From: Phycisphaerales bacterium
GTDB lineage: Bacteria; Planctomycetota; Phycisphaerae; UBA1845
Length of the DNA: 64,000 nucleotides
NCBI GenBank assembly: GCA_003597935.1
Contig: QZJT01000059.1
Span: 1 to 64,000 of the forward strand
Direction: 5' to 3'
Both the position numbers and the translations under genes were made by a program. Positions 4,468 through 64,000 of the stretch are shown here, piece by piece. Below the pieces are notes generated by a model. The model searched no databases. It was not told the DNA's origin and worked only from the letters and a program-made list of their open reading frames with translations. The first letter of the stretch is position 1. Every line of letters begins with the position of its first letter.

Positions 4468-5262
4468 TCACCCACACGTCACATTTACCGGCTCCACGCA
4501 CGCGTCCGGAGCGATCAGCGTCAACTCGACCGGCCCTTCCAGGCAGCAGGTGCGGTGCTTCGCCTTCCGCCCCGCGATCGACAGTTCGATCGGCTCGCCG
4601 TCGATGCCGATGGTCAACGTCCGGCCGTCGTGGTCGCGCGAACTCAACTTGACTTTCGCGGTGAGCTTTCCGGACGGACCGCAACGCCCTTTCAACCGCC
4701 GCACCGCCTCGCACGGCACGCCGCCGACCGTCACCACGCGGATGTTGTCGAAGTTGGCGCCGAACTTCTCCGGGATGACGTTGTTGCCCTCGTTGGCGGC
4801 GCTGAACGACAGCGAGACGATTTCGCCCAGCGGCTCGCCGGTGAGGCGCCCGGGCGTGTTCACGTCCGCCTCGAGGCGCGTGCGCTGCCCGATCTGTTCG
4901 GCCAGCAGCAGGGCGAAGTCGCCGCTGGCGGCCCGTACGATCACCGCGCTGGTGGGACGGTTGCCGACGAAGCCGCCCTCGAAGTCCTCGACATCCACCG
5001 ACACCGCGAAGACCTTGTCGCCTTCGGGAAGATCAAACGTGATCAGATCCGTGTTCGGCTCCAGGTGCAGTTTCCATTCGCCGTCCTCGTTGATGATCCG
5101 CCAGCAGCATTCCTTGAACTCCAGGTCGTGCCTGAAGAACGGGTTGGTGAACTCACCGCCGTCGAAGGTCTCCACCTGTTCGGCGCCCAGGGCCGCCGGC
5201 GCCAACCCCCACGTCAAAACGCACAGACACGTCACACGACTACGCACGGCCTCTCGGTACAC
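4468..5262 (-). CDS. Secreted hypothetical protein with a conserved 85-aa C-terminal domain ending in CG (shared with the 11230-12566 protein)
   Basis: GTG start at 5262 is preceded by AGGA. Signal peptide VRSRVTCLCVLTWGLAPAALGA. The C-terminal 85 aa align clearly with the C-terminus of the 11230-12566 protein. The plus-strand ORFs at 4390-5404 are antisense shadows. Confidence 0.6.
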   Translation of the reverse strand: MYREAVRSRVTCLCVLTWGLAPAALGAEQVETFDGGEFTNPFFRHDLEFKECCWRIINEDGEWKLHLEPNTDLITFDLPEGDKVFAVSVDVEDFEGGFVGNRPTSAVIVRAASGDFALLLAEQIGQRTRLEADVNTPGRLTGEPLGEIVSLSFSAANEGNNVIPEKFGANFDNIRVVTVGGVPCEAVRRLKGRCGPSGKLTAKVKLSSRDHDGRTLTIGIDGEPIELSIAGRKAKHRTCCLEGPVELTLIAPDACVEPVNVTCG

Positions 5263-5509
5263 GCTTTTTGTCCTCGACTCACAAGACTTCCCGGGACCGC
5301 GCCCCCGCGCGGTCCACCCGTCCACACCATGTCTCACGATACTTGAGTCCTTCCGCCATTGGCGCCTCGGCGAGCGTTTGGCGCTCGATGGCCACAAGTT
5401 CTGACAGTCGCCAGTATCCCGAGCGGTGAAGTGGCGTCCTTCACCACCGCCGTCGCTGACATAGAATCGGGCCGCGGAGACGGATCTGGCGCCGGGTCGC
5501 CCGGATCAG

Positions 5510-11229: not shown

Positions 11230-12566
11230 CTAACCGCAGTCCACCTCCACGCCCTCGACGCAGCCGGGCGGCTGGATGAGTTGGACGCGCCGGGCGCCGG
11301 ACTGGTTGTGGAAGACACGCTTCGCCTTGCGGCCGTCGATGACGATGTCCGCCGGCTGCCCGTTGACGGCGATCGTCACCGATTCTCCATCGTGCTCGCG
11401 CGTGTTCAGCCTCACCGTGACGGTAAGGCCGCCGCGCCGGCACCTGGCTTTCAGTTTCTTCACGTGGTCGCAGGGGATGCCCCCCTCCGGCGACGTGAAC
11501 CAGGGGCGGCTGAAGGGGGACTCCAGCATGAAGTCCAGCAGCAGGCGTCCGACCTTCTCGACGCCCGACGGCGACGGGTGCGTCCCGTCGTCGCGCAGGT
11601 CTTCGCACCGCCAGATCAAGCCGTCGGATCGCGGCTTCAGGCCGTCCGCCCACAGATAGGCGCCCCAGGCCATCCAGGGCGCGGCGGCGTTGTAGTCGAG
11701 GTCTCCGGCGATCGGGTCGATCCCCCCCCCGGCCATCTGGCGGATCTGGGCCTCGACCAGCCACTTGACGGTGAAGCCCGACTCGTACGCGTACGGCTCG
11801 GGATTGAGCGGGGTGGAGGCGTACCCGGCGTAAATGCGGCTGGAATGAAAAACCACCTGCACGTTCGGATACCGCTGGTTCAGCGCCCGCGCGATGCCGC
11901 CCATGTAGCCCAGCAGGCGGAACGCGTCGGCGTCCGGGGCGGGCAGCGACACGCGCGGCGCGGCGTTCGCCACCTTGACCCACACGGCCTGCACCTGTGC
12001 TTCCGTGACGCCTTCGCGGGCCAGCCGCGTGTCGCGGACGCGGTCATAGTTCGGATCGTCCGGCGAGTCCCACGTCTGCGCGGTCTGCCCCCCGGCCGCG
12101 CCGTCCACGATCATCAGGGTGGCGTGATTCACCCGCGGATCCGCGGTCGCCTGCGCCTCGAAGCTGCCGGGCTGGCACGGATTGCCGCCGCAGAACTCCT
12201 GCGTGGTGTTCGACATCCCGATGGAGAGCAGCACGATCTTCCCGGCCGGGTCCGGCCGGCCGTCGGCATCCAGCGGCTGGACGTTCAGAGCGCGGCGGAG
12301 ACCTTCGGCGGCGTGCGGCGTCGGCGGCTCGTTCAAGCCGTCGGGGTAGAGGCCGCCCGGGTAGCGGCCCAGGTAGAGGCCGCGGCCGAGGTCGTTGACG
12401 GGAGTCAGGCCCACCGACGTACGCTCGCAGTCCGAGGCGGCGCATGGGCGGGCCGGGCCTGAGCCCAAGAGCAGCGTTGCGAATAGCGCCGCCGCAGCCG
12501 GGCGACGCACACCGCAGTGCCATTTCACTTTGAGGCGGGCAGCACAAGCACAACGCGACGTGGGCA
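11230..12566 (-). CDS. Secreted protein, possibly esterase/SGNH-like (IVLLSIGMSNT), with the conserved 85-aa C-terminal CG domain
   Basis: Signal peptide (RPAAAALFATLLLGSGPARPCAA). The C-terminal 85 aa align with the 4468-5262 protein. Upstream ORF-track extension to 12882 translates the nonamer array and is rejected. Confidence 0.6.
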
Positions 12567-12647
12567 TGGTCTGTCTCCGTGTGATGGCGCCACTGTACCA
12601 ACTCGGCCGCGACGATGGGAGAGCGAGAGTCGGATCACGCACGCGCG

Positions 12648-12840
12648 GCATGGACGGCATGGACGGCATGGACGGCATGGACAGCATGGACAGCATGGAC
12701 AGCATGGACAGCAAGGACAGCATGGACTCCGGCCGCGCCGTGGATCGTCCGTGCATTCCGTGCGGTCCATTCAGTCCATCAAGTCTATTCAGTCCATCAA
12801 GTCCATTCAGTCCATCAAGTCCATTCAGTCCATCAAGTCC
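12648..12840. repeat. Nonamer array with an ATGGAC core: 10 direct units (GCATGGACG/GCATGGACA), a 35-bp spacer, then 8 inverted units (TCCATTCAG/TCCATCAAG)
   Basis: Direct reading. Same core and direct-then-inverted architecture as the 10025-10203 array. Confidence 0.85.
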
Positions 12841-12850
12841 GTCTAGCCCA

Positions 12851-15085
12851 TCAGTCCGGGCTCCCTCCCCCAGCGGGCGCATCGTCCGGCGCCGCCATGC
12901 CCAGTTCCGCCATCAGGAACGTCCATTTCATCGCGTCCTCGCGCAGGATGCCGCGGATCGGCTTGCTGGCGCCCAGGCCGGACCGGATCAGCGTGTGGCA
13001 CAGCGCCGTCGCGCCGGTCGACTTGCCCACCGCCTGCAAGCGGGCGGCCAGCTTCCAGGCGTGCAGCGTGCCGATCTGGTCGTCGGCCTGATCCGTCAGG
13101 ATCAGCGCCGACGGGTACTCTCGCCCATCCTTGACGTTGTGTGCCGGCGACAGCCGCGCCAGGCGCGAGGCGTCCGCCGGGTCCGACGGATCGCCCAGCA
13201 GGGCGTGCAGACGGCGGGCCGCCGGAACCTGGTCGAAGCGGAGCAGATCCGCCACCGGGCCGTCGAAGACCGCCGCCGCCGCCAGTTCGGGGCGGCGTGT
13301 CATCAGCGCCAGCGCCGGCAGCGACGATACGCCGGTCCCGCCAACCGCCAGCCTCTGCGGACGGGTGAACTTGTCTTCGATCAGCTTGCGGGCCGCGGCC
13401 TCGAAATCTGAGACCGACCGCTCGACCTTCGCCCCCAGTCCGGCACGGCGCCAGTCGCGATCGCCGGTGTTGTCGCCGCGCGTGCGGGCGATGGCGATGA
13501 CGCCGCCCCGCTGCACCCACGGGATCATGGACGCGTCGAAGGCGGGTGGATCGGTCGCCGGATCCTCCTTGTAGGGTCGCAGCAGCGTCGGGTTGTTACC
13601 GTCGCGCTGAAGGTCCTTGCGGTGCACCAGTCGGATGGGGATGACCGTGCCGTCGTCGGCCCTCGCTTCGATCTCGTAGTCGGCGTAAAGGCTGGTGTCG
13701 GCCTTCACCTCCCGCTGCCAGTAGCGCTCCAGCGCCCGGTCGCGGATGTTGTAGCGGTAGTTGGCGGGCGGCGTGTCGAACGCCTCGCAGGCGATGTACA
13801 CGTCCGGGTCGTTCCAGTGACCGTGCAGGTCGGTGACCACCAAACCCGGGGGAAGAGGGATCTCCAGGATGAACTCCCCGCCCAGGGTGTACACGTGCAG
13901 TTTCGAATAGCCGTCCTCGGTGTAGTGAAGCACCAGCTTGCGGTTGGCGATCAGGAGCGACCGCAGCACCCCGCTGCGCTGCGGAATCACCTCATTCCAG
14001 CGCGCCCGGTCCAGCTCGGTGGCCGGCGTCGAGAGCAACCGTCCGCGCGGCGCCTGATCATCGGTCAGAATGAAGACCCGCCCTTCGAAGACGTCGACCT
14101 CGAAGCGGGCGTCCACGCCCTTGACCAGCGGCACGAAGCCCTGCTCCGACGGGCACGGCCGCAGGAAGACGTCGTGGCTCAACTCGTCGCGCGACGCGCG
14201 GACGATGGTGTAGAGCGTGTCCGCGGAGGCGCTCACCTCCAGGCTGGTCCGCGGGTCGTCCGCCGTGAACACGACGCGATCGCGGCCGGCCGCCCCGCCG
14301 CTGCGGTGATAGACGACGTGCTGCAGTTGCAAGTCCGTCGTCTCGAGGTCGTCGCCTGCGTCGCCCGGGCGGGGCGGGGCGCCACGGCGCACGTAATGGT
14401 AGCCGCGCTGATCCGGGTCCCACGCCAGGTAGAACGTGGACGGGCGACCCGCGGTGACGTTCTCGAAGATCCGCGTGTGGTAGGGGTTGCACACCTGCCT
14501 GGAGAGATAGACCTCGGAGGCGTGATCCAGCCCGCTGGTCAGATCGCGGATCATGACGTTGCTGGCGTCGTCACCCCTCCGCGATGTCCCGTAGGCCACG
14601 GTGGCGCCGTCCCACGTGGGAAAGGCCCAGTCGATCGAGACCGACCCGTCGCGGCTGAGGACGTTCGGATCCAGCACCACGCGGTCTTCGCCCATCACGC
14701 CGCCGGCGCGCCGGATGTAGAGCGGCTGATCCTGCAGGCCGCGGCGCTTCCAGAGGAAATACTGGCTGCCGTAACGTTGCGGCGCCGACTCCGAGTCGCT
14801 GTCGAACAGCGCCTCCAGCTCGCTGAGGACCGCCGAATGAGTGGCGGCGTAGCGACCGAGAAACTGCCGCACCTCCGCGTTCTGTGCCGCCACCCACGTG
14901 ATGACTTCCGTCGTTCCGGCCTCTTCCAGCCATTGATAGGGGTCGGCGACGCGGGCCCGGCCGGCGTCGATCGTCGCGTCCACCACCCGGGTGGCAGGGG
15001 GGGCGGCCGCCGCCGGCGCGCCGATGAGCAACGCCGTCGCCAGCACGGTGCGGTATCCTCCGATGAACTCTTCTGCACTTCGCAT
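12851..15085 (-). CDS. Prolyl oligopeptidase (S9A) family homologue, secreted; catalytic triad apparently not conserved (probable pseudoenzyme)
   Basis: DPYQWLEE N-terminal hallmark, beta-propeller plus alpha/beta hydrolase body. Signal peptide after the ATG at 15085. Canonical GGSNGG reads GGTGVS and canonical KAGHGAG reads RSGLGAS. Confidence 0.8.
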   Translation of the reverse strand: MRSAEEFIGGYRTVLATALLIGAPAAAAPPATRVVDATIDAGRARVADPYQWLEEAGTTEVITWVAAQNAEVRQFLGRYAATHSAVLSELEALFDSDSESAPQRYGSQYFLWKRRGLQDQPLYIRRAGGVMGEDRVVLDPNVLSRDGSVSIDWAFPTWDGATVAYGTSRRGDDASNVMIRDLTSGLDHASEVYLSRQVCNPYHTRIFENVTAGRPSTFYLAWDPDQRGYHYVRRGAPPRPGDAGDDLETTDLQLQHVVYHRSGGAAGRDRVVFTADDPRTSLEVSASADTLYTIVRASRDELSHDVFLRPCPSEQGFVPLVKGVDARFEVDVFEGRVFILTDDQAPRGRLLSTPATELDRARWNEVIPQRSGVLRSLLIANRKLVLHYTEDGYSKLHVYTLGGEFILEIPLPPGLVVTDLHGHWNDPDVYIACEAFDTPPANYRYNIRDRALERYWQREVKADTSLYADYEIEARADDGTVIPIRLVHRKDLQRDGNNPTLLRPYKEDPATDPPAFDASMIPWVQRGGVIAIARTRGDNTGDRDWRRAGLGAKVERSVSDFEAAARKLIEDKFTRPQRLAVGGTGVSSLPALALMTRRPELAAAAVFDGPVADLLRFDQVPAARRLHALLGDPSDPADASRLARLSPAHNVKDGREYPSALILTDQADDQIGTLHAWKLAARLQAVGKSTGATALCHTLIRSGLGASKPIRGILREDAMKWTFLMAELGMAAPDDAPAGGGSPD

Positions 15086-24055: not shown

Positions 24056-25092
24056 CTAACTGCAGCTTTCGGCCTTACCCTTGAGCTTGCAGATGCCGTT
24101 GCCGTCCGGGCAAGCGATCGTCGTTTTGAGCTTCTTATTGCAGTCCTTCACGTCTTCACACTGGCCCTCGGTGCGATACGACGAGCCCTTGGGCGGGCAG
24201 GTCTCGCAGCCGCGCTTCGCCCTGCTCTTCTTGATGGTGTAGCGACACACCGGACCACCCGCCTCCAGGAAGTCCCAGCCGCGCACGTCGCTGTAACCGC
24301 CGGAGCCGACCAGTTCTTCGTCCGCGGTGACCGTGTCGATCCGATACATCTCGGACCGCCCGCCGTACAGCTTTCCATCCGGACCGCAGGAGATCGTCTG
24401 AATGCCGATCTGGGGAGAGGAGTTCTGATTGGGGTCGACGTCGGTGGTCTGGGCATTGTTGACGTCGACCGTTACCAGCCCCTGTCCGATCCCGTTACCC
24501 GGGCCGATGTCATAGGCGTAGAGGGTGTCGCCGCAGAAAGCCAGACCCTGCACGCCCGGAAGGCCCATGCTCCCGATGCGGACGCTGTTGCCCGACTGCG
24601 GATCGATGGCGTGCAACTCGTCTGGCTGCCCGAAGGCGATCTCATTGACCGCGAAGACCTTGCCGGAGGGTGACAGGGCCAGCCCCCGGACGTCAGCCAG
24701 CGTGATCCCTGCGGCAGCGCGGGCCAGACCGGTCGACGGATCGATGATCCACAACGTGCCGCCACGGCCCGCCATGTAGATCTCGCCATCGCCCGTCGGC
24801 GCAGATGCGTTGAGCGTCTGTGTTCCGGAAGGGCCGAGCACCCGTCCGACGCCGGTGCTGCTGTCGAATGCATAGGCCGTTCCCGCCCAGGCGCCGCCGG
24901 CCATGTCTTCCGCCGACACGCCCGGCGCCGGGTCGATGGTCAAATCGGACGGCACGCCGCCCGCAACGCCCGGCAGACCATCCCCATCCGGGTCGATTAT
25001 GACCCCCCCCCCCACGTTTGCCACCGCGGCGCCTGCCAGCGCGGCGATGCACCAGACGAACAGCACTGCAGAAAACCTGTGACTCATCATTC
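24056..25092 (-). CDS. Secreted beta-propeller-like (NHL/YVTN-type repeat) protein with a C-terminal 8-Cys basic module
   Basis: ATG at 25092 preceded by GGAGG. Signal peptide MMSHRFSAVLFVWCIAALAGAAVA. Repeats GLALSPSGKVFAVNE and VQGLAFCGDTLYAYD. The C-terminal 65 aa align with the C-terminus of the 60530-61507 protein. Confidence 0.7.
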
Positions 25093-60529: not shown

Positions 60530-61507
60530 TTACTCGGCGCACGAATCTCGCTCGCCTTTGACTTTGCAGCTTCCCTTGCCGCCCTCGGGACAATCGAACG
60601 TCCCTTTGTAGCGACGGCGGCAATCGTCCGCCGCGTCGCACCCTTCCCCGCTGGACACGAGTTCGCCGGGCTGAGGACACGCGCGGCAGCCGTGCCGCGC
60701 CCTGGACCTGCCCACCGCGTATTGGCAGGACGCGCCGCGGACGGCGTACTCGATGTGAAAGTGCCACGGCTCCAGGAAGCCGTAGGGCGCCGGCAGCCCG
60801 GGCGGCGCCTTCTGGCCCCGCTCCTCGAAATGTTTGAAGATCGCGTAGGGAATGGTGATCCGCACCGACAGGGACGTCGTCCCGCCGCCCGCCACCTCGA
60901 TCTTGCCCGATTCCAGCAGCGTCCCCAGCCGGTAGTTGGGAGGCGAGTCTGAAAAAACGTTCGGGAAGAAGGCGTCGAGGTCTCGAAACGCCCGGGAGGC
61001 GGTGTCGTGGTTGTAGAACTGGATGTACGGGTCCGGCAACTGGTCCATCTGGTCGATGTCCCAGAGCTTGTGCATCATGAAGGTGTCCATCTGGAACTCG
61101 ACCCGTCGGTCGAACTTGATGTCACGCACCTCGACGGTGATCGCGGAGCCTGCCTTGATGTCCGCGAAGTAGTCCTTCAAGCGCCGGGTTTCCAGAGTCT
61201 CCTTGAAGAACGAATGCGAGATCAGAGATTCATTGTCGTAGAGCGCGCCGATGGCCAGCAGCCGCCGGCCGAAGGCGTTGTACGAGTTCATATAATGGAT
61301 ATTCTCATCGTCCGGGGAAAGCTGCACGGCGTCCCGCGGCCCCCGGCCGTTGAAGTCCACTTCGCCGGTCAGAACGCGTGGCCCGGAATGGGTCATATAA
61401 GTCAGGGTCGTTCGGGCCGTGCCGATCGGCGTCGGCCGCTCTCCGCGGGCGGCCGCCGGCGCCGCCAGCACAGCCGCAATCAGGAGGAATGTCGCACTTC
61501 GATTCAT
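60530..61507 (-). CDS. Secreted hypothetical protein with a C-terminal 8-Cys basic module (shared with the 24056-25092 protein)
   Basis: Signal peptide MNRSATFLLIAAVLAAPAAA. C-terminal GASCQYAVGRSRARHGCRACPQPGELVSSGEGCDAADDCRRRYKGTFDCPEGGKGSCKVKGERDSCAE. Confidence 0.65.
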   Translation of the reverse strand: MNRSATFLLIAAVLAAPAAARGERPTPIGTARTTLTYMTHSGPRVLTGEVDFNGRGPRDAVQLSPDDENIHYMNSYNAFGRRLLAIGALYDNESLISHSFFKETLETRRLKDYFADIKAGSAITVEVRDIKFDRRVEFQMDTFMMHKLWDIDQMDQLPDPYIQFYNHDTASRAFRDLDAFFPNVFSDSPPNYRLGTLLESGKIEVAGGGTTSLSVRITIPYAIFKHFEERGQKAPPGLPAPYGFLEPWHFHIEYAVRGASCQYAVGRSRARHGCRACPQPGELVSSGEGCDAADDCRRRYKGTFDCPEGGKGSCKVKGERDSCAE

Positions 61508-61619: not shown

Positions 61620-63455
61620 CTATTGCGGATCGGTGAAGCGCACCATGAAACGGCCGAAGTCGGCCAGATCCACGTCGTCGTCGGCGTCCAGATCGGCGGG
61701 CCGGCACTGCGGCTCCACCGGCCCGGCGCCCGGCCCCTTCAGACACGCGGCCCATCGGCCGTAGTCCTCCAGGTCGACCCGGTGATCGCCATTGAAATCC
61801 CCGTGAGAGAACGGCGCCAGGGGGATGGTTTCGGCGGCCATTTCGACCGGACGCGATTTTCCGGTCCTGGACCATTGTTCATAGAGGATGCGTCCCGCGT
61901 CGTTGGTGCGGTTCTCGTCGCGCAGGAACTCGATGTACTCCTTGCTGGCGGTTTGATAGTAGACGCGAACGGTCATCCTGGCCGCGTCGATCGGCAGCAC
62001 GAACAAAGCGTCGTCCCAGTACTGGCCGTCGCTGTAGCCCGCCCCGACGACCGGCGACTGGACCCGCCTGAACCCTTCGTTGGTGAAGCCGCGGGGGGGG
62101 ATGCGATTGTCCTTGTGAATGGCGTTGGCGAGCACGACGTGGTACGTGGGCCCGGGCGGCAGCCCCACCTTGCCCGCCACCAGCCCATCCACGCCCAGAA
62201 CGATCTCATACACCACGGTATCATCCTGCGTAAGTTCCGCCGTCTCGAAATCGTACGCCCCGCACTCGGCGATCACCTCGCCGTCGTCGTTCGTGAACAC
62301 CACGTTGATCCACGCCCGGCGGCCGTCGGGCATGCCGGTGGGCAGCTTGTGGCCTCCCTCGTTGATGACGCGGACCCTGGCGGTATCGCCCGACTGCTCC
62401 ACCTGGAGCGTGACCGTGCGTTTGAGCAGGTCCTCCGCCCGCGCCATGGCCTTGTTCAGTTGGTCGACGTCAACCTCGTCGGGGTAGAGGTTGGCGATCA
62501 TCTTGCCGGTGAACGTGTTGCCGCCCACGGCGCCATGGGCGGCCATGTCGTCGCGCATCGGTCCGAAGGAGGCGGACCGCGAGGTGGTGTCCGGCATGTG
62601 GCAGTCCTGGCAGGTGCTGACCACCCGCTTGTTGCCGCCGAACCGCCCGCCCATGTCCACGCCGTGCCGGGCGAATTCACTTTCTTTCCATTCGCTCGAC
62701 GCCCGCTCCAGCGGAAACATGTCGTACTTGTTCCCGGTTGGATGGGGTTTGCCCATTTCATTCAGGATGTACGTGTCATCCGGCTGGCGGTCATAGAGCG
62801 GGCTGCTGACGTCGTGGCACGTTTCGCAGAGGGCGGGGTCTTCATGGAAAGGAGAAAGAAGCATGGAATGGGGGTTGGGCTCGCCGCGGGGGCCGCGGCG
62901 GCGGTCGTAGGGATCGGTGACGTAGTTGGCGCTGTCGAAGTCGACGGGCCTGTCGCCGAGCTGGTCGAGAATCTGCTTGTCTTCCAGCGGGCTGACGCCT
63001 TCCTGGTAGAAGGGATCCACCATGCGGTGGCAGAAGTGGCAGTTAATGCTGTCCCGGTCTGACCGGTTGATCCTCGACCCGTCCGTGGGGAATCCGCGCC
63101 CTGAAAGCCAGGCCCGTGGCACGTGACAGCGGATGCACATGTCTCCGATGAACGGCGTGTCTTGCTCGGAGATCGCCAGGCAGGCGTACCACATCGGGTC
63201 CCGCCCCGACTGGGCGTGCATGCTGCCCGACCAGGGCTTGTTAATGTGTATGCGCTCGTCATCCCCCCCGTGACACATGCCGCAGTTGGCGCTGGAGAGG
63301 AACTGCTCGTAGGGGTCGCCCCACTGGGTGCCCGCGCGGTAGAAGTCCTCGAGCGTGGTGGAGGCGGCTGTGGGGGGTCCAACCGGCGCTCGTCCCCGAG
63401 CGAACTGGACCACCACCACGCAGCAGCAAAGGACACAGAGTTTCGCGGTTCGCAT
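61620..63455 (-). CDS. Secreted pentahaem c-type cytochrome with a C-terminal dockerin-like double Ca-binding repeat
   Basis: ATG at 63455 with GGAG upstream. Signal peptide MRTAKLCVLCCCVVVVQFA. Five CxxCH motifs (CGMCH, CIRCH, CHFCH, CETCH, CQDCH). C-terminal DFNGDHRVDLED and DLDADDDVDLAD repeats. Confidence 0.8.
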   Translation of the reverse strand: MRTAKLCVLCCCVVVVQFARGRAPVGPPTAASTTLEDFYRAGTQWGDPYEQFLSSANCGMCHGGDDERIHINKPWSGSMHAQSGRDPMWYACLAISEQDTPFIGDMCIRCHVPRAWLSGRGFPTDGSRINRSDRDSINCHFCHRMVDPFYQEGVSPLEDKQILDQLGDRPVDFDSANYVTDPYDRRRGPRGEPNPHSMLLSPFHEDPALCETCHDVSSPLYDRQPDDTYILNEMGKPHPTGNKYDMFPLERASSEWKESEFARHGVDMGGRFGGNKRVVSTCQDCHMPDTTSRSASFGPMRDDMAAHGAVGGNTFTGKMIANLYPDEVDVDQLNKAMARAEDLLKRTVTLQVEQSGDTARVRVINEGGHKLPTGMPDGRRAWINVVFTNDDGEVIAECGAYDFETAELTQDDTVVYEIVLGVDGLVAGKVGLPPGPTYHVVLANAIHKDNRIPPRGFTNEGFRRVQSPVVGAGYSDGQYWDDALFVLPIDAARMTVRVYYQTASKEYIEFLRDENRTNDAGRILYEQWSRTGKSRPVEMAAETIPLAPFSHGDFNGDHRVDLEDYGRWAACLKGPGAGPVEPQCRPADLDADDDVDLADFGRFMVRFTDPQ

Positions 63456-63834
63456 CGGCTCGGCTCCAAACGCACGTCCACGAGACACGCACCCCGGCGG
63501 GGCACGTGCATCCCTCACCGTGGCGTCGGCACGCCGACTCCACGGTGAACGCTGTTCTGGCTCCGGCCCGATGCACAATCCAAACGGCTCACGGCCTCGC
63601 GCATCAAGCGATGCTTCGCCTGCCGCGAGGCGCCCGTTCGGATCGTACTCTGGCAAAACGCGCGCGACAGTCACGACCACCGTGGTGGCCCCGGCCCGTC
63701 GCGTGTTCCGATACGTCCACTCTACCGGGTTGCACGAGGGAATGCAAGGCCGGGAATTCGCCCATCCCACCCCGCGCAACGTCTGCGGCCGGCAGCGCCG
63801 CCGAGTCGGGCGCACGGTGCTCATTCCACGATCG

Positions 63835-64000
63835 TCGAAGGCGGCAGGTCGCTGCGATGGGGGCCGATGCTGAAGGGTTCGACGACGATCAGGCGCGGAC
63901 CGGCGGGCGACGCCCACGTCTCGACGCCGACCACTTCGAACATCGTGGCCGGAGGGGGGACGGGTTTGCCCACGCGAAGATGAATGGTCGCGAAGCGGGC
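63835..64000 (-). CDS. 3' end of a hypothetical gene that continues beyond the window
   Basis: Open frame reading ...MFEVVGVETWASPAGPRLIVVEPFSIGPHRSDLPPSTIVE-stop. Only the C-terminal 55 codons are visible. Confidence 0.3.

Follow-up and report, generated by a model that had tools for sequence, protein, structure and literature searches.

Two proteins encoded in a 64,000-nucleotide stretch of Phycisphaerales DNA (contig QZJT01000059.1 of assembly GCA_003597935.1, positions 1 to 64,000 of the forward strand; hereafter the window), designated protA and protB, end in a common basic domain with eight conserved cysteines, here called the 8-Cys tail, and are unrelated in the exported parts that precede it, which we refer to as passengers. 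The tail is a member of a family that, as judged by sequence searches, is uncatalogued, being absent from Pfam-A, NCBIfam and the PDB sequences. Both passenger families are, by their sequences, cargo of the PEP-CTERM sorting system in other bacteria, with the 8-Cys domain occupying the same junction here, and the probable role of the domain is to bring proteins to the cell envelope or to hold them there.

A shared C-terminal domain in two otherwise unrelated proteins

An earlier first-pass annotation of the window, made from the letters alone, had proposed that two secreted proteins with unrelated N-terminal domains have a C-terminal module with eight cysteines in common, and our analysis agrees with both parts of this proposal. 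The tails of protA and protB aligned over 67 residues with 39% identity, 58% positives and one 1-residue gap (BLASTP E 1e-16), and the peptide strings quoted in the annotation were exact. The Smith-Waterman score of the pair (155) was reached in 0 of 5000 shuffles, which scored 31.6 +/- 6.4 with a maximum of 77. Cysteines were located at positions 5, 18, 21, 34, 40, 50, 57 and 66 of one tail and at 4, 17, 20, 33, 39, 49, 57 and 66 of the other. By sequence comparison, the likeness of the tails is far too strong for chance and marks them as homologous, and the passengers had no similarity to one another (best E 4.8). Six-frame searches of the window with a two-sequence hidden Markov model (HMM) and with the family HMM revealed these two copies only; the latter model scored protA at 89.3 bits (E 1e-26) and protB at 80.7 bits (E 4.7e-24).

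The two genes and their parts are located as follows, all on the minus strand:

24056..25090 (-), protA gene: 344 amino acids, exported beta-propeller protein with 8-Cys tail; stop codon at 24056-24058
25019..25090 (-), protA predicted Sec signal peptide MMSHRFSAVLFVWCIAALAGAAVA: read by eye, with basic n-region, hydrophobic core and AVA cleavage-type motif
24269..25018 (-), protA passenger: acidic, net charge -19; DUF4394/tachylectin-like beta-propeller, ending in the conserved junction GSGGYSDVRGWDF
24059..24268 (-), protA tail: Gly-containing linker and 8-Cys basic domain; one residue beyond Cys8
24062-24247 (-), protA tail core, Cys1 to Cys8: 62 amino acids, net charge +8, 11 K and 4 R
60530..61507 (-), protB gene: 325 amino acids, exported protein whose fold is unknown, with 8-Cys tail; stop codon at 60530-60532
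61448..61507 (-), protB predicted Sec signal peptide MNRSATFLLIAAVLAAPAAA: read from the sequence by eye
60746..61447 (-), protB passenger: net charge -5, ending in the conserved junction FLEPWHFHIEY
60533..60745 (-), protB tail: Arg-rich variant of the 8-Cys domain; two residues beyond Cys8
60539-60727 (-), protB tail core, Cys1 to Cys8: 63 amino acids, net charge +3, 4 K and 8 R

Both signal peptides were judged by eye rather than by a predictor, and read as Sec-type sequences without a twin-arginine motif. The start of protA had been placed at 25092, which is out of frame; the ATG is located at 25090 (or 25087), and a GGAGG motif is found 6 nt upstream of the ATG at 25090. A database protein identical to protA over its length (P0111, 100%; NCBI hypothetical protein C4547_06240 from a Phycisphaerales metagenome-assembled genome, MAG) is annotated by NCBI with 336 amino acids, beginning 8 codons downstream at MLFVWC and thus dropping the charged n-region of the signal peptide (window 25066-25090, minus strand). 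The start at 25090, with its Shine-Dalgarno sequence 6 nt upstream, is more plausible than that of P0111.

Homologues of protA carry the Pfam domains DUF4394, DUF6923 and tachylectin, and three orthologues (P0001, P0023 and P0024) have the same tail. The protB protein had no match in Pfam or NCBIfam; its orthologue P0033, at 52% identity, shares the tail. A full-length model of protB, built from a two-sequence alignment, was discarded (predicted local distance difference test, pLDDT, of 44).

Extent, hosts and architecture of the family

When 1.84 billion representative proteins were scanned exhaustively with HMMER, the two-sequence profile recovered 107 family members at E<=1e-3, 71 of them at E<=1e-10; word-indexed homology searches with the tail alignments had given either zero or three short proteins only, and a first scan of metagenome contigs no confirmed relative. 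Together with protA and protB, the family set comprised 109 proteins. Neither window protein, nor any of 80 isolated tails, scored above threshold in Pfam-A (2025 copy) or NCBIfam 20.0, no known Cys-rich family was matched in these collections or among PDB sequences, where the family profile gave nothing at E<=1, and literature searches found nothing on the domain.

The domain is found almost exclusively at the extreme C-terminus: in 104 of the 109 proteins no more than five residues follow the last Cys, exactly one residue being the commonest case, and protA (one residue) and protB (two) agree with this pattern. A shared terminal motif such as '-CG' was considered and rejected, the residue after Cys8 being variable (Gly in 50 of 134, followed by E, S, R and D). 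The regions upstream of the tail fell into at least 42 unrelated BLAST clusters, few of which are recognised by Pfam (scattered DUF4394, DUF6923 and WD40). By a crude count of hydrophobic runs, 73 of the 99 family proteins that start with Met have an N-terminal hydrophobic, signal-like segment. Two members, P0087 and P0088, consist of little beyond signal peptide, short linker and tail, which indicates that the domain works on its own. In P0041, P0084 and P0090 it is internal or near the N-terminus and is followed by long repeat-rich regions, so that it is not obligatorily terminal, and P0083 has a degenerate second copy.

All members with a named source are 'hypothetical proteins' from Phycisphaerales MAGs. 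The MAG of the window itself contributes at least five (protA/C4547_06240, protB, C4547_05215, C4547_03125 and C4547_04310). A peptide-pattern scan of one genome per GTDB species retrieved 23 loci, every one of them from the same uncultured Phycisphaeraceae MAG (GCA_964648365.1); as the patterns were narrow and derived from a tighter alignment, the taxonomic range that they gave is a lower bound. By six-frame HMM search these loci hold at least 30 distinct tail-bearing open reading frames (ORFs), all ending 0-1 residues before the stop codon. Eight loci (L004, L006-L010, L014 and L015) hold same-strand tandem pairs of tail genes, which points to local duplication. Around the approximately 30 tail genes of this MAG no recurrent neighbour gene was observed, only alternative-frame shadows of the tails themselves, and gene context therefore neither supports nor excludes a partner, nor does it separate the readings of function discussed below.

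Exchange with PEP-CTERM at a fixed junction

Proteins homologous to the protA passenger are DUF4394/tachylectin-like propellers with a common junction, GSGGYxDVRG-x-[ED]-F. Beyond it, four proteins carry the 8-Cys tail and seven (P0115, P0118, P0120, P0122, P0124, P0126 and P0127) a PEP-CTERM-like motif tail, which in three cases (P0115, P0118 and P0127) exceeds the curated TIGR02595 cutoff. The sole homologue found for the protB passenger, a metagenomic ORF (L027 2890-3813), ends in ...FLEPWHFHLEY-LVVPEPAALTLLAGGAGLMLLRRRR; its C-terminus qualifies as a PEP-CTERM signal (21.7 bits on TIGR02595, cutoff 16), which begins exactly where protB reads on as WHFHIEY-AVRGAS-C.... In the window no PEP-CTERM-like ORF was detected.

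PEP-CTERM, described by Haft and colleagues, is a surface- or exopolysaccharide-associated sorting signal that is processed by exosortase. Considering this role, its exchange with the 8-Cys domain suggests that the latter also sets extracytoplasmic localisation, by a mechanism that must differ from that of PEP-CTERM since the 8-Cys tail has no hydrophobic helix. The idea of the first-pass annotation, namely an autonomous C-terminal tag on unrelated exported proteins, was borne out: neither outcome that it had named as refuting came about, as no known Cys-rich family was matched and many more members were found, and the presence of PEP-CTERM at the same junction lends independent support to a role in localisation or anchoring.

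Apart from these two kinds of tail, a number of propeller homologues (P0112, P0113, P0114, P0116, P0117, P0119 and P0121) have other uncharacterised extensions of 110-160 amino acids after GSGGYxDVRG, some of them with Cys; the extensions of P0113 and P0114, the two that were scanned, had no significant match in Pfam or NCBIfam. To judge from its C-termini, the family of the protA passenger seems particularly prone to exchanging its tails. One member, P0118, has a weak, nearly full-length likeness to NCBIfam floc_PepA, a flocculation-associated PEP-CTERM protein (37.5 bits, cutoff 80), which hints at a role of the propeller family in cell aggregation or matrix binding.

Cysteines, charge and predicted fold

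The consensus of the family is C-x-Y-x-[LVI]-KKSKAKGGC-xx-CP-x-KG-...-CE-x-V-x-DC-x-KK-[LVI]-K-x-TI-x-CP-x-GG-x-G-x-CK-[ILV]-KGKR-xx-C, in which GC-x-x-CP and CP-x-GG-x-G-x-C are near-invariant. Both window proteins conform to the family spacing of cysteines, C-x12-13-C-x2-C-x12-C-x5-C-x9-C-x6-7-C-x8-C. All eight were kept in effectively all of 140 sequences, the sole true exception being P0053, which has neither Cys1 nor Cys7; their joint loss is a hint that these two residues may form a disulfide pair.

Tail cores have a median length of 63 amino acids and a median net charge of +7, as opposed to a median of -13 in the passengers, which are negative in 99% of cases. The statement of the first-pass annotation that both proteins are K/R-rich holds for the tails of protA and protB (cores +8 and +3) and fails for their passengers (-19 and -5). 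Lysine is preferred over arginine, K/(K+R) being 0.76 in tails versus 0.30 in passengers (the GC content of the window is 67%), and in protA the tail has 11 K and 4 R versus 2 K and 9 R in the passenger. The tail also has Arg-rich variants, represented by protB, P0032, P0033 and P0039. Twelve columns of the alignment are at least 70% basic (model positions 13, 14, 16, 18, 27, 45, 46, 48, 61, 63, 65 and 66); protA is basic at 11 of these, with Ala at 66, and protB has no basic residue at 13, 27 and 65 (G, P and E, respectively). The eight residues preceding Cys1, which constitute the linker, are 26% Gly.

An AlphaFold2 model of the tail, based on an alignment of 80 sequences, was of high confidence (pLDDT of 89) and comprised strands at 7-18, 30-36, 46-52 and 59-69 and one helical turn. 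The 'knot' of the first-pass annotation found no support: the model is a four-stranded sheet, and the predicted fold has no structural neighbour in the PDB above noise, including no knottin or defensin. Strand patterns such as KKLKTTI, CKLKGKR and KKSKAK alternate basic and hydrophobic residues, and this periodicity would place a ladder of lysines on one face of the sheet.

Comparison with known systems

The 8-Cys tail resembles C-terminal localisation modules, yet for every such family open to testing it lacks the features that define the family. The closest parallel is PEP-CTERM/exosortase (TIGR02595, PF07589): as in that system, the tail is located at the extreme C-terminus, has many paralogues per genome and follows unrelated exported passengers, and in other bacteria the two passenger families concerned, that of protB and that of the DUF4394-type propeller, bear PEP-CTERM at exactly the junction where the tail is attached here. 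Unlike PEP-CTERM, the tail has no PEP motif, hydrophobic helix or terminal Arg cluster and is predicted to be a folded, disulfide-rich domain of approximately 63 residues. Neither protA nor protB matched NCBIfam models or the Pfam PEP-CTERM model at E<=1, and no hydrophobic run is present in the tail.

The C-terminal domain of the type IX secretion system (T9SS; Por_Secre_tail) of Bacteroidota is likewise folded, rich in beta-structure, of similar size and attached to many unrelated secreted proteins of one lineage. It is an Ig-like beta-sandwich without conserved Cys that is recognised and cleaved by PorU, whereas the 8-Cys tail is modelled with four strands, combines its eight Cys with a surface that is strongly basic, and belongs to another phylum; models of T9SS domains (Por_Secre_tail and type B) gave no sequence-family match to the tails. 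Type I dockerins (PF00404) are also small C-terminal modules that localise diverse extracellular passengers; however, they are acidic Ca-binding repeats without conserved disulfides, unlike the basic tail with its eight Cys, and did not match the tails at E<=1.

Proposed electrostatic binding has its parallels elsewhere. The GW modules of Listeria (cationic wall anchors), the Limulus anti-lipopolysaccharide (anti-LPS) factor and tachyplesin (the latter two being disulfide-stabilised, LPS-binding hairpins) bind anionic envelope polymers electrostatically. With the mechanism that we propose for the tail they share the alternation of basic and hydrophobic residues, a C-terminal or hairpin element and electrostatic binding, which for the tail would be by analogy. 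They have no likeness to it in sequence or fold, and are Gram-positive anchors or host-defence peptides. Finally, the YfgJ-type double zinc ribbon Zn_ribbon_6 (PF07191) approaches the tail in size (approximately 65-70 residues) and in its eight Cys, and was the sole Pfam family with recurrent matches to the tails, all below the gathering threshold. Members of PF07191 have four CxxC knuckles and are cytoplasmic, in contrast to the tail, which has a single CxxC and is exported.

Proposed function and alternatives

We consider the 8-Cys module to be a candidate for a new C-terminal localisation or anchoring domain, in which a cationic sheet would bind an anionic polymer of the envelope and so tether the passenger; to this reading as a whole we give an even chance. 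Following Sec export, the eight Cys would form four disulfides that staple the small four-stranded sheet, and its cationic lysine face would bind, without a covalent bond, to an anionic constituent of the envelope, for which LPS/lipid A, acidic exopolysaccharide and peptidoglycan are candidates. Retention would be electrostatic. A flexible Gly linker would join the tail to the acidic, often lectin-like passenger (propellers, beta-sandwiches), which would in this manner be kept on the surface or in the matrix. The tail would thus do the anchoring job of PEP-CTERM/exosortase without a membrane helix.

A number of observations weigh against this proposal. No neighbour gene is conserved around the approximately 30 tail genes. 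The choice between K and R is position-specific (K at 61, 63 and 65, R at 66), a pattern more suggestive of a specific partner that recognises the tail than of electrostatics in general, and the core of protB has a net charge of just +3. Disulfide pairing and the lysine face were read from strand periodicity and not from the coordinates of the model, while signal peptides were assigned by eye and by the hydrophobic-run count (73/99). A few members (P0041, P0084 and P0090) carry the domain internally or near the N-terminus, and the taxonomic restriction is drawn from few named members and a narrow peptide-pattern scan.

The same preference for K or R at given positions, together with the GC-x-x-CP and CP-x-GG-x-G-x-C elements, would fit recognition by a protein, and the tail may instead be a signal for a dedicated export or attachment machine, in the way that the T9SS domain serves PorU/PorV and PEP-CTERM serves exosortase, bound by a specific receptor and then removed or covalently transferred after passage through the outer membrane. 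Sorting signals are classically recognised by being strictly C-terminal, by recurring in many paralogues of a genome and by following unrelated passengers, as the tail does, and the tail stands in for PEP-CTERM at the same junction. Nevertheless, neither candidate machinery nor a conserved neighbour was found around the tail genes, no catalogued sorting domain was matched in NCBIfam or Pfam, internal copies occur and there is no hint of a cleavage site, so that we regard a machine of this kind as rather unlikely. Equally doubtful, in our view, is a still broader proposal, in which the tail would address proteins to a surface-sorting or attachment system of Phycisphaerales not described so far; in this lineage the system would have taken over cargo families that belong to PEP-CTERM/exosortase in other bacteria, and it would have its own receptor or processing machinery and a fold absent from solved structures. 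Docking in the manner of dockerins, with the tail plugging into an acidic receptor or scaffold protein or into an S-layer-like lattice on the cell surface, would agree with the modular architecture and its Gly linker and with the strong and specific conservation of surface positions; moreover, one window protein has a sub-threshold dockerin-like C-terminus (see below), and docking-type tails may serve this organism. No acidic-repeat or cohesin-like partner candidate was identified, however, and the tail is unlike dockerins in sequence and fold, which makes this distinctly improbable.

Two further readings concern the cysteines and the charge. The eight Cys could bind two metal ions in the manner of a zinc ribbon rather than form disulfides, which would turn the tail into a metal-dependent structural or binding domain; indeed, 14 of 80 tails matched Zn_ribbon_6, a double zinc ribbon model of approximately 67 residues, below threshold (best E 0.0026, 17.3 bits vs cutoff 25). 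We nonetheless judge it very unlikely: the tail has a single CxxC pair, the comparison of the family profile with PDB sequences was negative, the Sec-type signal peptides have no twin-arginine motif, cysteines exported in this way would face an oxidising periplasm, and the paired loss of Cys1 and Cys7 in one sequence fits a disulfide. It would surprise us even more if the tail were a cationic, defensin-like antimicrobial or membrane-active peptide freed by proteolysis from diverse pro-domains. It is cationic and, by prediction, disulfide-rich and built of beta-sheet, and small proteins of signal peptide plus tail do exist, but a constant tail on variable, large, folded passengers is the reverse of pro-peptide or polymorphic-toxin logic. 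Furthermore, PEP-CTERM takes the place of the tail in homologues, no defensin or knottin fold was matched, and neither processing sites nor immunity genes were found nearby.

Genomic setting and other C-terminal modules of the window

The window sequence lies within JGI metagenome contig Ga0104756_1000044. Both tail genes are set among genes of housekeeping type, with RNase III, MurJ and an ABC ATPase near protA and an S15 peptidase and a multihaem-cytochrome-like protein near protB. The cytochrome-like protein (ORF 61620-63917, minus strand) has weak matches of the MtrC/NrfH type, and its C-terminus is a D-rich, dockerin-like double repeat (Dockerin_1, E 0.015 and 15.9 bits against a cutoff of 22.9) that may, by its sequence, add a third type to the C-terminal localisation modules of the window.

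Another such module is Domain 1, of approximately 85 amino acids, which is found in ORFs 4471-5505 and 11233-12912 (both on the minus strand) in copies that are 46% identical (E 4e-22), preceded by GG, basic, provided with several Cys and ending in ...CG. Domain 1 had no match in Pfam or NCBIfam. We considered it as a distant relative of the 8-Cys tail and rejected this for lack of any HMM signal; it also never occurred in the 109 tail proteins. The first-pass annotation had taken the 8-Cys module for a second, independent C-terminal tag system in the window, and the two modules are, as far as HMMs detect, unrelated. At or upstream of the 5' end of ORF 11233-12912 are two arrays of 9-bp tandem repeats, one at 12648-12727 (GCATGGACA, 8.9 copies) and the other at 12765-12857 (GTCCATCAA-type, 10.4 copies, with superperiods of 18 and 36 bp); in frame, they translate into GLDGLN and SMLSMP repeats.

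Significance

How proteins are placed on the surface of Planctomycetota, in particular Phycisphaerae, is poorly understood. The lineage of tail carriers is known from MAGs only, and the function of the tail is at present a proposal. In this setting, the 8-Cys domain, whose predicted fold is without a solved neighbour, flags a whole group of proteins, at least 30 of them in one genome, that probably belong to the surface or matrix and are now annotated as 'hypothetical', and a family profile would let these be annotated at once. As a small, autonomous, putatively disulfide-stapled cationic tag it could also serve as a handle for surface display or polyanion affinity. For the biology of these bacteria, the swap with PEP-CTERM at a fixed junction leads to a testable claim, namely that the tail replaces exosortase-dependent anchoring by a means that involves no helix and probably no covalent bond.

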